Origin: a virus
Taxonomy: Duplodnaviria > Heunggongvirae > Uroviricota > Caudoviricetes
DNA length: 6,830 nt
Virus record (IMG/VR): IMGVR_UViG_2671180805_000011
Reading direction: 5' to 3' (one strand)
Part shown: positions 421-6,526 of the stretch, piece by piece
Position numbering within the stretch: position 1 is the stretch's first letter
Layout: each line of letters begins with the position of its first letter
Program-made: the position numbers and the translations under genes
Notes under the pieces: model-generated
The model's input: the letters and a program-made list of their open reading frames with translations, nothing else
Databases searched by the model: none
Told to the model about the DNA's origin: nothing

Positions 421-756
421 ATGAAGTGGATTGTGATTGATACAGTTATCCAGCCATCATGCGGAATATCTTTTTCAGTCATATGGAGTAAAATAAAATT
501 AATAATCTGGTATCAATCGGATGCTTTCTTACCTCCTGAAAGTATATTTACACTGACTCACACAGGCATCATGCTCAATAACAAAGTGCTACCTGTAACC
601 ATTTACAACGTAGTACCATTCAATAAAACATTCTGGAATTCAATCAAAAATAGCCAGGAATGCCCTACAAATACAGATAACGTATTGAATGAATGCTTTA
701 ATAACCGTTGCACTCTGCAAATATGTCCTTATGGACTAAAACAACAAAGTCCATAA
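421..756 (+). CDS. Hypothetical Cys-rich small protein (111 aa), AT-rich, unknown function
   Basis: ORF track; good RBS and promoter-like hexamers upstream; strongly AT-rich relative to neighbouring phage genes; transcribed convergently to the phage late genes. No family recognised. Confidence 0.4.
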
Positions 757-810: not shown

Positions 811-1036
811 TGGAGAGTGGCGCTATGTGCCATTGCATGGTGCCGGGTGCCTCCCGGTGAATTCAGTACCAGCACCTGAATCCGCGATTATCCCATATAC
901 CTACTCGCTGATTGCCCCTCCGCACAGGGGGATTCACCATGCCAGTTTCTTTTAACAAACTCCCCGCAAACCAGACAACAGTCAACCGCCTGAATTGTGA
1001 AGTATTTAAAAATTTCTCCCGCTAACTGATACCCGG

Positions 1037-1123
1037 CTAACAGTCTGGCGTTTTCTTTTTCAGCAACGGGAAAGCAACAACCACCACACCCGCCACCAGC
1101 ACACCGTCAGCCAGCACTGACAT
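1037..1123 (-). CDS. Candidate 28-aa hydrophobic micropeptide (MSVLADGVLVAGVVVVAFPLLKKKTPDC)
   Basis: My own translation of the minus strand; below the ORF-track size cutoff. Single predicted membrane-like helix followed by KKK; no convincing Shine-Dalgarno. Second identical copy at 5806-5892. Confidence 0.15.
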   Translation of the reverse strand: MSVLADGVLVAGVVVVAFPLLKKKTPDC

Positions 1124-1203
1124 TATCCGGCTGCTGCAATGCCATTCACAAAAACAGTAAGCAATCACTTTTTACCGTAACAGGTGATAATCCAGATATG
1201 TAT

Positions 1204-1557
1204 CTACCCCAGATGAGTAATCCGAAGTTCATCCATACCACAGGTCCTGGCTATTCTGTTGTACTCCTGAACAAGAGCAAATAATTCTGAATTAGCAACC
1301 ATGAACTCATCGCAAACCCTCTGTATAGCATCACTATTCAGAATAATAACGTCTCTTCCCGAAAGACGATCAGGAGTACAGAACAAAACTGTCAAACGGC
1401 TGAAGGCCTTTGCTCGTGCTGCATTGACTATATCAATACGCTGCCTAAGGATGAAACACCCCGACGCCTCATCAATATTCACTCTACCCACACCATATGA
1501 ATGATAAATATTTAATGCTGAAAAAACCATTAGACCGTATAACAAACACTCAATCAA
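1204..1557 (-). CDS. Hypothetical protein (117 aa from TTG; 108 aa from first ATG at 1530), unknown function
   Basis: ORF track; sits directly downstream of tRNA-Arg(UCU), the slot stxA occupies in Stx phages. Promoter-like TTGTCA-16-TAAGTA upstream on the minus strand (about 1590-1563). Weak RBS, AT-rich; an antisense 67-aa ORF (1301-1504) overlaps. Confidence 0.3.
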   Translation of the reverse strand: MIECLLYGLMVFSALNIYHSYGVGRVNIDEASGCFILRQRIDIVNAARAKAFSRLTVLFCTPDRLSGRDVIILNSDAIQRVCDEFMVANSELFALVQEYNRIARTCGMDELRITHLG

Positions 1558-1667
1558 TACTTAACAGAACTTTTATTTTTGACAAACATAAAATATTTTC
1601 AACAATATCCTGAGCCAGGTATATTTCAGTATAAGGCTCTGCCGGAAGGAATCTGGAAGAATGAATA

Positions 1668-1823: not shown

Positions 1824-2790
1824 ACTTGAGCGAGATATATTAAAAAAAGCAACAGCGTATTTTGCACAGGAGTCGCTGAAAAATACGCGTTAATCGAACA
1901 ATGGCGACAACAATTTCCCATTGAAGCGATGTGTCAGGTATTTGGTGTATCCAGGAGCGGTTATTACAACTGGGTACAGCATGAACCCTCAGACAGAAAA
2001 CAAAGTGATGAGCGGCTAAAACTGGAGATTAAGGTGGCACATATCCGCACTCGCGAAACATATGGAACCCGGCGGCTCCAGACGGAGCTGGCAGAGAATG
2101 GCATCATCGTTGGTCGTGACCGACTGGCACGTCTTCGTAAGGAGCTAAGGCTACGCTGTAAGCAGAAACGCAAGTTCAGAGCGACTACGAACTCGAACCA
2201 CAATCTGCCAGTTGCGCCAAATCTGCTGAACCAGACGTTCGCTCCTACAGCACCAAATCAGGTCTGGGTGGCGGACCTGACGTATGTTGCCACACAGGAG
2301 GGATGGTTGTACCTCGCTGGCATCAAAGATGTTTATACGTGCGAAATTGTCGGCTACGCCATGGGAGAGCGCATGACAAAAGAGCTGACAGGTAAAGCCC
2401 TGTTTATGGCGCTCAGGAGCCAGCGCCCACCTGCCGGGCTAATCCACCACTCTGATCGAGGTTCACAGTACTGCGCATACGATTACCGGGTCATACAGGA
2501 GCAGTCTGGTCTGAAAACATCAATGTCGCGTAAAGGTAACTGTTACGACAACGCTCCGATGGAAAGCTTCTGGGGAACGCTGAAAAATGAGAGCCTGAGC
2601 CACTATCGTTTTAATAACCGGGATGAAGCCATCTCAGTAATACGGGAATACATTGAGATTTTCTACAATCGTCAGCGTCGTCACTCTCGTCTGGGGAATA
2701 TCTCCCCGGCAGCCTTCAGGGAAAAATATCATCAGATGGCTGCTTAAAAAAAGAACAAATGGTAGTGTCCGCTATTGCCAGTACACCTCA
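1824..2790 (+). mobile_element. 5'-truncated IS3-family insertion sequence (lacks left inverted repeat and most of orfA)
   Basis: Retains orfA C-terminus (...ELERDILKKATAYFAQESLKNTR), slippery run A-AAA-AAA at 1842-1848 for -1 frameshifting, complete OrfB and the right terminal repeat 2758-2790. Only ~967 bp versus ~1.2-1.3 kb for intact family members. Confidence 0.8.
1929..2747 (+). CDS. IS3-family transposase OrfB (DDE integrase catalytic domain)
   Basis: 272-aa ORF with the DDE signature contexts WVADLTY, HSDRGSQY and NAPMESFWGTLKNE; the -1 frame is open from 1830 (KKSNSVFCTGVAEKYALIEQWRQQFPIEAM...), as expected for an OrfAB fusion. Confidence 0.9.
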   Translation: MCQVFGVSRSGYYNWVQHEPSDRKQSDERLKLEIKVAHIRTRETYGTRRLQTELAENGIIVGRDRLARLRKELRLRCKQKRKFRATTNSNHNLPVAPNLLNQTFAPTAPNQVWVADLTYVATQEGWLYLAGIKDVYTCEIVGYAMGERMTKELTGKALFMALRSQRPPAGLIHHSDRGSQYCAYDYRVIQEQSGLKTSMSRKGNCYDNAPMESFWGTLKNESLSHYRFNNRDEAISVIREYIEIFYNRQRRHSRLGNISPAAFREKYHQMAA

Positions 2791-2996
2791 GGATAGCGGT
2801 CATGTGATGCCGGTTTCCCGGTAACTCAGCACCGGTATCTGAGTCAACGTTTTCTCTACTGGGTCATTTCCGATACGCCCTGCCTGCTGACAGGCTTTCA
2901 TCACATCTGAAAATATAGCACCCTGACTGATACTGTAGTACCTAAGGTTCCAGAAACTGTGATGTATCCGGCACAGAAAAGCCCCTCCGGAGAGGG

Positions 2997-3200
2997 CTGG
3001 AGAGTGGCGCTATGTGCCATTGCATGATGCCGGGTGCCTCCCGGTGAATTCAGTACCAGCACCTGAATCCGCGATTATCCCATATACCTACTCGCTGATT
3101 GCCCCTCCGCACAGGGGGATTCACCATGCCAGTTTCTTTTAACAAACTCCCCGCAAAACAGACAACTGTCAACCGTCTGAATTGTGAGACATTTAAAAAA
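2997..3200. repeat. Third, slightly diverged copy of the conserved ~200-bp segment
   Basis: Aligns with 807-1012 and 5576-5781 with a handful of substitutions (for example catgatgcc versus catggtgcc). Here it directly follows the argO terminator with no insert. Confidence 0.85.
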
Positions 3201-3220
3201 AAGGCCCGCAAAAGCGAGCC
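3195..3220 (-). terminator. Rho-independent terminator downstream of the tRNA cluster
   Basis: Minus strand GGCUCGC-UUUU-GCGGGCC followed by eight U (plus-strand A-run 3195-3202). Confidence 0.5.
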
Positions 3221-3234
3221 AGGGAAAATAAGTG

Positions 3235-3311
3235 TGGCGCGTTGTACTGGATTCGAACCAGTGACCGATTGCTTAGAAGGCAATTGCTCTGTCCGGCTGA
3301 GCTAACAACGC
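3235..3311 (-). tRNA. argO: tRNA-Arg (anticodon UCU)
   Basis: 77 nt; perfect acceptor GCGTTGT/ACAACGC, anticodon loop CUUCUAA, T-loop TTCGAAT, CCA encoded. Confidence 0.85.
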
Positions 3312-3324
3312 ATGATGCAGATAA

Positions 3325-3401
3325 TGGACCGCCATCGGGGACTTGAACCCCGCGCAGCCAGCTTCGAAGGCTGGCGCTCTTTCCTGATGAGCTAATGGCG
3401 G
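3325..3401 (-). tRNA. argN: tRNA-Arg (anticodon UCG)
   Basis: 77 nt; acceptor CCGCCAT/ATGGCGG, D-arm GCTC/GAGC, anticodon loop CUUCGAA, T-arm CGGGG-TTCAAGT-CCCCG, CCA encoded. Confidence 0.85.
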
Positions 3402-3408
3402 TATGTGA

Positions 3409-3484
3409 TGGTGGCCCTTGCTGGATTTGAACCAGCGACCTGGCGATTATGAGTCGCTCGCTCTCACCACTGAGCTAAAGGGCC
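3409..3484 (-). tRNA. ileZ: tRNA-Ile2 type (anticodon CAU, presumably lysidine-modified)
   Basis: 76 nt cloverleaf with CCA; closely resembles the E. coli ileX sequence as I recall it. Anticodon CAU alone cannot exclude tRNA-Met. Confidence 0.75.
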
Positions 3485-3524
3485 GGGAGCCGCATAATAA
3501 CGACGCGTAATTAATTCTTCAATA

Positions 3525-4723: not shown

Positions 4724-4747
4724 AAAAAAGCCTTCACTGCGGAAGGC
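4724..4747 (-). terminator. Hairpin plus U-tract overlapping the stop codon of the small HTH gene
   Basis: Minus strand GCCUUC-CGCAGU-GAAGGC followed by UUUUUUAUUU. Confidence 0.45.
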
Positions 4748-4931
4748 GTCTGTAACAACCGAACTGATAGTCTGCCAGACCCGCCATAACCAGCTGGGTC
4801 AGTATTAACTGGCAGCGTTCGCGTGAAAGGTAAGTATTCTGCGCTATCTCCCCGACTGTCGCCGGTTCGGTAACGCTTAATTCATTAAACACCACTCTGG
4901 CGGTTTCTGTCATATCCTGCTGTTTTAGCAT
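4734..4931 (-). CDS. Small predicted helix-turn-helix DNA-binding protein (65 aa)
   Basis: ORF track; AAGGAAAAG Shine-Dalgarno before ATG; segment VGEIAQNTYLSRERCQLILTQLVMAGL looks like a helix-turn-helix; immediately upstream of the methylase in the same orientation. Confidence 0.5.
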   Translation of the reverse strand: MLKQQDMTETARVVFNELSVTEPATVGEIAQNTYLSRERCQLILTQLVMAGLADYQFGCYRRLPQ

Positions 4932-5049: not shown

Positions 5050-5075
5050 ATAAAAAACCCGCTCGGCGGCGGGTT
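5050..5075 (-). terminator. tR'-like terminator of the short late leader transcript
   Basis: Minus strand AACCCGC-CGCCGA-GCGGGUU followed by UUUUUAU; repeated at 6727-6752. Confidence 0.55.
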
Positions 5076-5155: not shown

Positions 5156-5644
5156 TTACCTAGTTACCTTTTTTAACTGCCGCTCAGCCCATGCTTCTTC
5201 AATATCAAACCGGGTCACCAGCGCATCATAAAATTTCTTAACTGTTTTTTCCCATGACGCGCGTGTTATCTGGTTTGTCACCTCGCATATAGCATTAAAT
5301 GCCTCCGTTGATGGTAGTCTTTCATAGCCACGACCACCACAACGCTGGCAGTCTCTGATAACAGGCATACCACGTTTTACCGACTCTTCACGATGAATGG
5401 CGACACCACGCCCACGGCAATCCTTACAGGCGGTGGAAACCTCACCCTTTCCGCCACACTCCGGACAGGCAACTTTTACCACCTCCCTGACTTTTTTCCA
5501 TTCTTCCCAGTAAGACGGATACACACCTTTCGTACACTTTGCCCATACCGGCGGCTTACCATCCGGATACTGGAAGGGCTGGAGAGTGGCGCTATGTGCC
5601 ATTGCATGGTGCCGGGTGCCTCCCGGTGAATTCAGTACCAGCAC
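5156..5644 (-). CDS. Q: Lambda-family late antiterminator Q, probably 5'-chimeric or truncated
   Basis: CxxC motifs (CPECGGKG, CKDCRGRG, CQRCGGRG) and C-terminus ...WEKTVKKFYDALV...KVTR match my recollection of lambda Q (...CRDCHGTGR...GRCKGVGY...WSRTVKPLYDALV...AVTR). The track ORF starts at GTG 5644; first ATG is 5603. Codons upstream of 5577 lie in the repeated conserved segment. Confidence 0.7.
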   Translation of the reverse strand: MLVLNSPGGTRHHAMAHSATLQPFQYPDGKPPVWAKCTKGVYPSYWEEWKKVREVVKVACPECGGKGEVSTACKDCRGRGVAIHREESVKRGMPVIRDCQRCGGRGYERLPSTEAFNAICEVTNQITRASWEKTVKKFYDALVTRFDIEEAWAERQLKKVTR

Positions 5645-5972
5645 CTGAATCCGCGATTATCCCATATACCTACTCGCTGATTGCCCCTCCGCACAGGGGG
5701 ATTCACCATGCCAGTTTCTTTTAACAAACTCCCCGCAAACCAGACAACAGTCAACCGCCTGAATTGTGAAGTATTTAAAAATTTCTCCCGCTAACTGATA
5801 CCCGGCTAACAGTCTGGCGTTTTCTTTTTCAGCAACGGGAAAGCAACAACCACCACACCCGCCACCAGCACACCGTCAGCCAGCACTGACATTATCCGGC
5901 TGCTGCAATGCCATTCACAAAAACAGTAAGCAATCACTTTTTACCGTAACAGGTGATAATCCAGATATGTAT

Positions 5973-6326
5973 CTACCCCAGATGAGTAATCCGAAGTTCA
6001 TCCATACCACAGGTCCTGGCTATTCTGTTGTACTCCTGAACAAGAGCAAATAATTCTGAATTAGCAACCATGAACTCATCGCAAACCCTCTGTATAGCAT
6101 CACTATTCAGAATAATAACGTCTCTTCCCGAAAGACGATCAGGAGTACAGAACAAAACTGTCAAACGGCTGAAGGCCTTTGCTCGTGCTGCATTGACTAT
6201 ATCAATACGCTGCCTAAGGATGAAACACCCCGACGCCTCATCAATATTCACTCTACCCACACCATATGAATGATAAATATTTAATGCTGAAAAAACCATT
6301 AGACCGTATAACAAACACTCAATCAA
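5973..6326 (-). CDS. Hypothetical protein, second identical copy of the 1204-1557 ORF
   Basis: ORF-track protein identical to the 1204-1557 product. Confidence 0.3.
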   Translation of the reverse strand: MIECLLYGLMVFSALNIYHSYGVGRVNIDEASGCFILRQRIDIVNAARAKAFSRLTVLFCTPDRLSGRDVIILNSDAIQRVCDEFMVANSELFALVQEYNRIARTCGMDELRITHLG

Positions 6327-6436
6327 TACTTAACAGAACTTTTATTTTTGACAAACATAAAATATTTTCAACAATATCCTGAGCCAGGTATATTTCAGTA
6401 TAAGGCTCTGCCGGAAGGAATCTGGAAGAATGAATA

Positions 6437-6513
6437 TGGCGCGCTGTACTGGATTCGAACCAGTGACCGATTGCTTAGAAGGCAATTGCTCTGTCCGGCT
6501 GAGCTAACAACGC
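6437..6513 (-). tRNA. argO: tRNA-Arg (anticodon UCU), identical to the 1668-1744 copy
   Basis: Same sequence as 1668-1744 at offset 4769. Confidence 0.8.
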
Positions 6514-6526
6514 TGAATACCGATAA

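Follow-up and report, generated by a model that had tools for sequence, protein, structure and literature searches.

A 655-bp cassette lies between the tRNA gene argO and the small RNA (sRNA) gene STnc100 in a stretch of Caudoviricetes DNA (IMG/VR record IMGVR_UViG_2671180805_000011; 6,830 nucleotides (nt), hereafter the window), and by homology at both flanks its position is the slot that holds the Shiga toxin genes (stx) in Stx phages. The reading that we favor, and consider probable, is that the cassette represents composite late-region cargo of a lambdoid prophage, in which the first open reading frame (ORF1) encodes a small late protein dependent on the antiterminator Q and the second (ORF2) is left over from a tciAB module. 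Comparative analysis identifies ORF1 as a genuine conserved coding gene of 92 codons, running from a GTG at 1482 to a stop at 1204. The cassette is ordinary modular cargo in a known late-operon hotspot, with no new mechanism or class of element.

The cassette occupies the stx slot

Three tRNA modules were located in the window by ARAGORN: A (argO only), B (ileZ, argN and argO) and C (ileZ and argO). All relevant cassette, tRNA and STnc100 genes are carried on the minus strand. The features that define the cassette and its slot are listed below, with lengths in amino acids (aa) and dN/dS standing for the ratio of nonsynonymous to synonymous substitution rates.

1013-1667, minus strand: cassette copy A, between argO and STnc100, without a counterpart at the same point in module B or phage 933W (alignment)
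5782-6436, minus strand: cassette copy C, identical to copy A and part of a perfect 1,017-bp repeat
1204-1482 (copy C, 5973-6251), minus strand: ORF1, gene of a 92-aa conserved protein with a GTG start (dN/dS, phrog_2873, homologue lengths)
1483-1557, minus strand: 5' leader of ORF1, misread as an N-terminal extension in 108- and 117-aa models
1169-1188 (copy C, 5938-5957), minus strand: deletion scar keeping traces of the 3' end of tciA and the start of tciB (18/20 match to phage JLK-2012)
1037-1168 (copy C, 5806-5937), minus strand: ORF2, 43-aa DUF3927/TciB-like gene, N-terminally remodelled (Pfam PF13064, phrog_1470)
1668-1744 (also 3235-3311 and 6437-6513), minus strand: argO, tRNA-Arg(UCU), left flank of the slot (ARAGORN, Rfam tRNA)
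782-971 (also 2969-3158 and 5541-5740), minus strand: STnc100 sRNA gene, right flank of the slot (Rfam RF02076; 132, 124 and 104 bits)
786-812: STnc100 terminator
3195-3224, minus strand: intrinsic terminator 3' of argO that marks the empty slot of module B; its 933W homologue is a terminator annotated ahead of stx

Phage 933W carries, in order, argO, a terminator, stx2A, stx2B and STnc100, the last starting 75 nt past stx2B with AsxR antisense alongside. When modules A, B and C were aligned with the sequences flanking stx2AB in this phage, homology extended through argO at one end and began about 40 nt before STnc100 at the other, and Rfam placed STnc100, an established prophage sRNA family (bioRxiv 10.64898/2026.05.13.724894), directly downstream of all three tRNA modules. 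As in the Stx-type slot, the cassette is preceded by argO and followed by STnc100, all on one strand. An earlier reading made from the letters alone (the sequence-only reading) had placed the insert in the position of Shiga toxin, and the homology at both flanks bears this out; it had missed the downstream STnc100 gene and the second same-strand ORF (1037-1168).

The slot was observed in three states: a terminator followed by stx2AB in 933W, a terminator alone in module B, and the 655-bp cassette in the terminator's place in modules A and C. That the insert occurs twice just past argO, and that module B has a terminator and no insert at this point, had both been noted earlier and were confirmed; module B (3235-3484) has all three tRNAs before that terminator. 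The two copies fall within a perfect repeat (807-1823 = 5576-6592; 1,017 bp, 100% identical), which also takes in argO, the greater part of STnc100 and an argN remnant. The insert boundaries are good to about 10–20 nt, with homology between modules A and B resuming at about 1002-1022 and being lost a few bases past the end of argO at 1668. The insert had been called AT-rich, which is true to a moderate degree: GC content is 41.5% in the cassette and 31% in the leader region 1483-1667, against 47.7% in the window.

Like the stx2AB locus of 933W and of Sakai Sp5, the cassette follows ileZ-argN-argO and precedes STnc100 on the late strand, with Q upstream in the canonical E. coli loci and pR' presumably so. 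Its cargo, a predicted cytoplasmic hairpin protein of 92 aa and a tciB relic, is unrelated to Stx, and whereas 933W keeps the terminator between argO and cargo, this has been replaced in the cassette clade. The slot is a modular hotspot that may be empty or occupied by stx, tciAB, ORF1, or ORF1 together with tciAB, and its recurrent occupants are candidate induction-linked factors.

The cassette shares with classical lambdoid-phage morons, as Hendrix and colleagues reportedly defined them, its presence or absence between homologous late regions (it is absent from module B, 933W and JLK-2012) and a GC content below that of its flanks. It differs from them in that neither a promoter nor a terminator of its own could be demonstrated, and it appears embedded in a tRNA or late transcript ending at the STnc100 terminator. 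The description of the insert as a discrete moron can be kept as far as presence/absence and differing GC are concerned and has to be given up as to its unity, the insert being a composite in which a deletion has joined a small conserved gene to a tciAB relic.

ORF1 is a conserved gene of 92 codons

ORF1 is regarded as a real gene because its 279 nt are free of gaps and show low dN/dS while the flanks gather indels. Compared with the clade of locus L008, the 279-nt core remained gap-free at 32% nucleotide divergence, with 24, 22 and 44 differences at the first, second and third codon positions and a dN/dS of 0.26. The ratio was 0.22–0.26 against other Escherichia coli (E. coli) clades and 0.10–0.33 across six clades, a range that counts every pair with unsaturated dS and no others. 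These substitution patterns indicate that ORF1 is under purifying selection between clades. Against the same L008 clade, the leader measures 75 nt versus 68 nt, with three gap openings, and is out of frame in L008, and between the stop codons of ORF1 and ORF2 identity falls to 50%, with four gap openings and 57 gap columns.

The aligned start position is GTG in every clade examined, except for an ATG in Citrobacter. In the L014/L018 clade the GTG is preceded, at a distance of 4 nt, by the Shine-Dalgarno sequence AGGAG; the window has only GGGT. The ORF of 108–117 aa proposed earlier proved too long, the conserved protein being 92 aa from the GTG at 1482. Models of 117 aa (TTG 1557) and 108 aa (ATG 1530) are open mechanically and were rejected: the extension is not conserved in frame, and distant homologues (91–110 aa) start at the GTG-aligned position. 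The phrog_2873 profile is itself 108 positions long because gene callers took the upstream ATG, and the conserved protein corresponds to its positions 17–108. Across 19 family members, R23, N64 and N75 are invariant. In the protein collection ORF1 is nearly always full length, in clusters of 253, 146, 175 and 370 members versus a handful of deletion-bearing singletons. A separate case is provided by one E. coli lineage (contigs L003–L007), in which the insertion point of an IS3-family element coincides with the first codon position of the ORF1 homologue; the result is a chimeric 119-aa ORF (P0017) whose N-terminus comes from the end of the insertion sequence (IS).

ORF1 matched phrog_2873 over its full length (residues 1–92 on profile positions 17–108) with an expect value (E) of 5.6e-58, and phrog_4827 with E 2.2e-5; among the family members, 19 of 19 matched the former and 16 of 19 the latter. 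PHROG 2873 and PHROG 4827 are both phage protein families without functional annotation, and ORF1 had no match in Pfam or NCBIfam. The statement that the insert encodes an ORF of no recognizable family does not hold, for ORF1 belongs to these two PHROGs and ORF2 is DUF3927/TciB-like.

Structure prediction for ORF1 gave a two-helix hairpin, with helices at residues 3–35 and 50–81 and predicted local distance difference test (pLDDT) scores of 85.8 and 88.9. A fold search returned no informative match. The combined family and structure searches proposed by the sequence-only reading accordingly yielded PHROG matches and a hairpin model, and no fold relative of use. The hairpin superposes on TraM (2q0o) with a template modelling (TM) score of 0.73 and E of about 0.8, among hundreds of generic hairpins. 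A relationship to GapR/UPF0335 (DUF2312) was considered and rejected: the PDB-sequence profile match reached only E 0.05–0.19 and covered helix 1 only, and none of the 19 members matched the Pfam family at E ≤ 1. Given the predicted hairpin, the ORF1 product, a putative soluble protein, would most likely bind a partner molecule rather than act as an enzyme.

ORF2 as a probable remnant of tciAB

ORF2 scored 95.6 bits with Pfam DUF3927 (PF13064), for which the cut-off is 25 (residues 2–43 on profile positions 7–53), and also matched PHROG 1470, 'TciB-like'. It is the sole cassette gene annotated by RefSeq ('DUF3927 family protein'). Its DNA is 93% identical to tciB of phage JLK-2012 over the 3' two-thirds, and the 20 nt at 1169-1188 match the tciA stop and tciB start of that phage at 18 of 20 positions. 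In the 5' part, 11+4+5 nt (20 nt) are missing relative to JLK-2012 tciB. As a result of the tciA scar and these gaps, ORF2 lacks the first hydrophobic segment and the overlap with a tciA stop codon: one hydrophobic segment (windows 14–24) was predicted, versus two in the TciB proteins of JLK-2012 and L014, and ORF2 has neither an upstream TerB-domain tciA nor an overlapping stop/start, as a tciAB module would. The equivalent region is broken by stop codons in the L008 clade. By these alignments ORF2 is most likely what is left of a tciAB module, and it is probably inert.

The tciA-tciB module of P1/D6-like phage-plasmids and JLK-2012 consists of a TerB-domain protein and a small DUF3927 membrane protein; its tci name derives from TerB homology alone (PMC9603915, PMC6799933), and it also lies beside phage tRNAs in D6-like elements (PMC6799933). 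In JLK-2012, tciAB occupies the same slot, in the order Q, three tRNAs, terminator, tciA, tciB, STnc100, yjhS/DUF1737, S, R and Rz, without ORF1. Here, tciA has been deleted save for the 20-nt scar and ORF2 is short of its first hydrophobic segment. The E. coli locus L014 and the Citrobacter locus L019 have both units, in the order ORF1, terminator, TerB-domain gene, DUF3927 and holin. A single functional operon of ORF1 and tciAB was rejected, since each occurs without the other (tciAB alone in JLK-2012, ORF1 alone in Morganella and Serratia) and the two are separated by a terminator in L014. Comparison of these loci identifies ORF1 and tciAB as separate modules, once neighbors, that were fused by deletion. 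Such a deletion would have removed ORF1's own terminator and nearly all of the TerB-type tciA and remodelled the 5' end of tciB, leaving a 43-codon ORF2 with one of the two TciB hydrophobic segments and no tciA for translational coupling.

The gene model of the cassette is thereby corrected, and its one RefSeq-annotated gene is probably a relic. PADLOC gave no match at E ≤ 0.1 for ORF1, ORF2, the TerB and DUF3927 proteins of L014, or the IraM-like protein encoded beside STnc100. Our survey of the literature covered DUF3927, the tci genes and the ileZ/argO slot and turned up no account of the ORF1 cassette cargo.

Distribution and genomic context of the ORF1 family

The full cassette was detected at an identity of at least 98.9% in 1,183 of 5,426 complete E. 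coli genomes (~22%), CFT073 included at 99.1%, and in one of 50,697 phage records, that of mEp460. Comparison with other prophages to see whether the insert recurs had been suggested by the sequence-only reading, and this presence/absence pattern answers it positively. ORF1-family DNA was present in 1,314 complete E. coli genomes (24%), in 1,185 of them as the window type at an identity of at least 95%. In every listed window-type row, RefSeq has nothing annotated over ORF1. A slot occupant of some 22% of complete E. coli genomes is in this way a conserved 92-aa gene under purifying selection, left unannotated in the RefSeq records examined.

Tblastn of ORF1 against the same phage records identified mEp460 only, with no link to TciC of P1 or to other sequenced phage proteins. 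Deep searches recovered divergent homologues of 21–63% identity, all of 91–110 aa; with only 20 representatives in 1.8 billion clusters, the family is small, and it is confined to Enterobacterales. A scan of species-representative genomes with a narrower alignment found it only in E. coli and one contig of a metagenome-assembled genome.

Homologues in Salmonella, Citrobacter, Morganella and Serratia prophages lie on the late strand, after Q (or a methylase) and before the holin/lysozyme genes. The common order across five genera is Q or methylase, (tRNAs), ORF1, (terminator, TerB+DUF3927), holin/lysozyme. The homologues are usually found a few hundred bases past a phage tRNA cluster, whose tRNAs vary by clade. 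In Salmonella and Citrobacter, an intrinsic terminator precedes the start codon by about 45 nt, and in L013, L014 and L018 a terminator follows the stop codon. Two E. coli clades carry a gene for a 241–242-aa HTH_18/AraC protein 90–130 nt upstream of the ORF1 homologue (L008 3969-4694, L014 4142-4870, L010 4186-4911), possibly one of the AraC-like regulators of enterohaemorrhagic E. coli prophages.

Two further loci deserve mention. A 91-aa homologue (P0039; 46 contigs; L021/L022 5001-5276) was found on plasmid-like contigs with Rep3 and an integrase, by a K88-like fimbrial operon with PapB, usher and chaperone genes; it is still preceded by a tRNA-Thr gene and so looks like a prophage fragment taken up by a plasmid. 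At the Salmonella locus L013, Rfam matches at 2714-2913 comprise isrK, the C4 antisense RNA and the a1/b1 target of the latter; they follow Q directly and precede the tRNAs and the ORF1 homologue, a further case of dense RNA regulators in a late-region stretch.

Transcription and competing explanations

Between argO and the STnc100 terminator, no terminator-like site was found save for a weak hairpin of three GC pairs inside ORF1. Directly upstream of ileZ are pT-like promoters (TTGCGG/TTGAAG-17-TATTAT), with tR'-like terminators just before them (6699-6752, 3494-3522 and 5052-5075, minus strand); they match putative features of 933W, in which a putative tRNA promoter, pT, is annotated at the equivalent place. 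A cross-clade alignment showed no conserved promoter upstream of ORF1, the leader not being conserved beyond about 45–75 nt. The stx genes lie downstream of Q under the control of pR' (PMC6266700). ORF1 would likewise be transcribed from pR' by Q-modified RNA polymerase on induction. Since the post-tRNA terminator has been replaced in the window clade, ORF1 would probably also be co-transcribed with the tRNAs from the pT-like promoter. Within the window, only module C is expressible in the canonical way, because the upstream promoters of module A have been lost to IS600.

It is unlikely that the whole insert, ORF1 included, is a decaying and unexpressed fossil hitch-hiking with a widespread prophage module. 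Such a fossil would fit the weak Shine-Dalgarno sequence and GTG start of the window clade, the lack of an ORF1 call in the RefSeq records examined, the visible decay of the adjacent tciAB module, the window-type clade being too uniform to show ongoing selection, and the presence of the cassette here in an IS600-scrambled defective prophage. However, a fossil would not be expected to keep exactly 92 codons free of indels at 32% divergence between flanks that gather them, a dN/dS of 0.10–0.33 in all informative pairs, almost invariably full length in the protein collection, and its position and length as far as Serratia and Morganella. Decay from a known gene, named earlier as a possible fate of the insert, applies to about a third of it and not to ORF1. 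Still less can be said for the real gene being the antisense ORF at 1301-1504 (plus strand), or for the region encoding an RNA rather than a protein, which we consider extremely improbable. In its favor, the antisense ORF has 67 open codons here, a frame without stops in L014/L018 and an apparent dN/dS of 0.21, but this low value is a mirror effect of the third codon positions it has in common with ORF1. Its frame is stopped in L008 and Salmonella (two stops each) and Citrobacter (six), its ATG is GTG in L008, it has no family match, and Rfam has no match inside the cassette. The choice between the two strands, left to codon analysis by the sequence-only reading, falls on the sense ORF.

Expression of ORF1 in the uninduced lysogen, as a lysogenic-conversion (moron) gene benefiting the host and not the phage, would require a leader promoter or read-through from the tRNA promoter, and we judge it improbable. 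With the post-argO terminator of module B and 933W replaced, tRNA-promoter transcripts should run into ORF1; the leader has a promoter-like TTGAAA-16-AAAAAT (1602->1575), cassette GC is below that of its surroundings, and one homologue resides on the plasmid-like contig by a fimbrial operon. The promoter-like site, however, scores only 9/12, the number of such sites (four found versus 1.9 ± 1.3 expected by chance) is within chance, and the leader is poorly conserved. The Salmonella/Citrobacter terminator leaves no room for a promoter before the start codon and points to Q-dependent read-through. This explanation also overlaps with Q-dependent late expression rather than excluding it. A role as a small anti-activator binding a prophage AraC-family regulator, analogous to TraM/TraR or to AraC-negative-regulator proteins, appears very unlikely. 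The upstream AraC genes of two E. coli clades and the TraM superposition speak for it, but that match is one of hundreds to generic hairpins, no AraC neighbor was found in the window clade (>1,100 genomes), Salmonella, Citrobacter, Serratia or Morganella, and no sequence family link was found. An extension of the Q-dependent late protein reading, to which we give little credence, is that the recurrent place of ORF1 after differing phage tRNA clusters (E. coli, Salmonella, Serratia, Morganella and the plasmid copy) reflects a shared job: guarding or exploiting tRNAs in lytic growth versus tRNA-targeting host defences or colicins, or modulating host physiology on induction alongside Stx. If it were true, ORF1 would be a widespread induction-linked factor in about a quarter of complete E. 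coli genomes.

Rearranged layout of the window and neighboring genes

The remaining tRNA features of the modules are as follows.

6699-6727 (module C) and 3494-3522 (module B), minus strand: pT-like tRNA promoter TTGCGG-17-TATTAT upstream of ileZ (read from the sequence)
6614-6689 (module C) and 3409-3484 (module B), minus strand: ileZ, CAU anticodon (ARAGORN, Rfam; annotated tRNA-Ile/ileZ in 933W and RefSeq)
3325-3401 (module B), minus strand: argN, tRNA-Arg(UCG) (ARAGORN)

The canonical E. coli locus is a single unit of RusA, Q, a 65-aa ORF, a methylase, ileZ, argO, the cassette, STnc100, IraM (opposite strand), a DUF1737 remnant, holin and lysozyme, and the three-module layout was not found in any complete E. 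coli genome. This makes the window an IS-scrambled defective prophage region, and rearrangement mediated by IS600 probably produced its layout. The one visible Q (5156-5644; PF03589) is an N-terminally truncated copy upstream of module B, the Q of module C itself lies outside the window, and module A is separated from any Q by a truncated IS600 at 1823/1824. This IS600 copy (1824-2795, plus strand) is truncated within orfA and abuts the argN remnant of module A; a 38-nt IS600 end recurs at 1-38.

Three STnc100 copies are found within 6.8 kb. The third (5541-5740), at the downstream end of module C, is truncated at 5576 with loss of its terminator and joined there to the C-terminal ~140 codons of the Q ORF, apparently a recombination junction. 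Remnants of argN persist in modules A (1745-1823) and C (6514-6613) on the minus strand; the canonical cassette-bearing E. coli loci L001 and L027 likewise have only tRNA-Ile and tRNA-Arg, so that loss of argN travels with the cassette.

An N6/N4 DNA methylase gene (PF01555; 3525-4583) and a 65-aa winged-helix-like ORF (4734-4931), both on the minus strand, lie between Q and the tRNAs, and several other clades, Morganella included, have both genes upstream of their ORF1 homologues. A gene for an IraM-like anti-adapter of 111 aa (421-756, plus strand; NCBIfam NF007393, E 4.7e-48; phrog_4407) is convergent with STnc100, with which it has a hairpin terminator region in common, and is a regular neighbor of the cassette in E. 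coli prophages. As it adjoins STnc100 and the cassette, it places a prophage-borne regulator of RpoS stability beside an stx-type slot.

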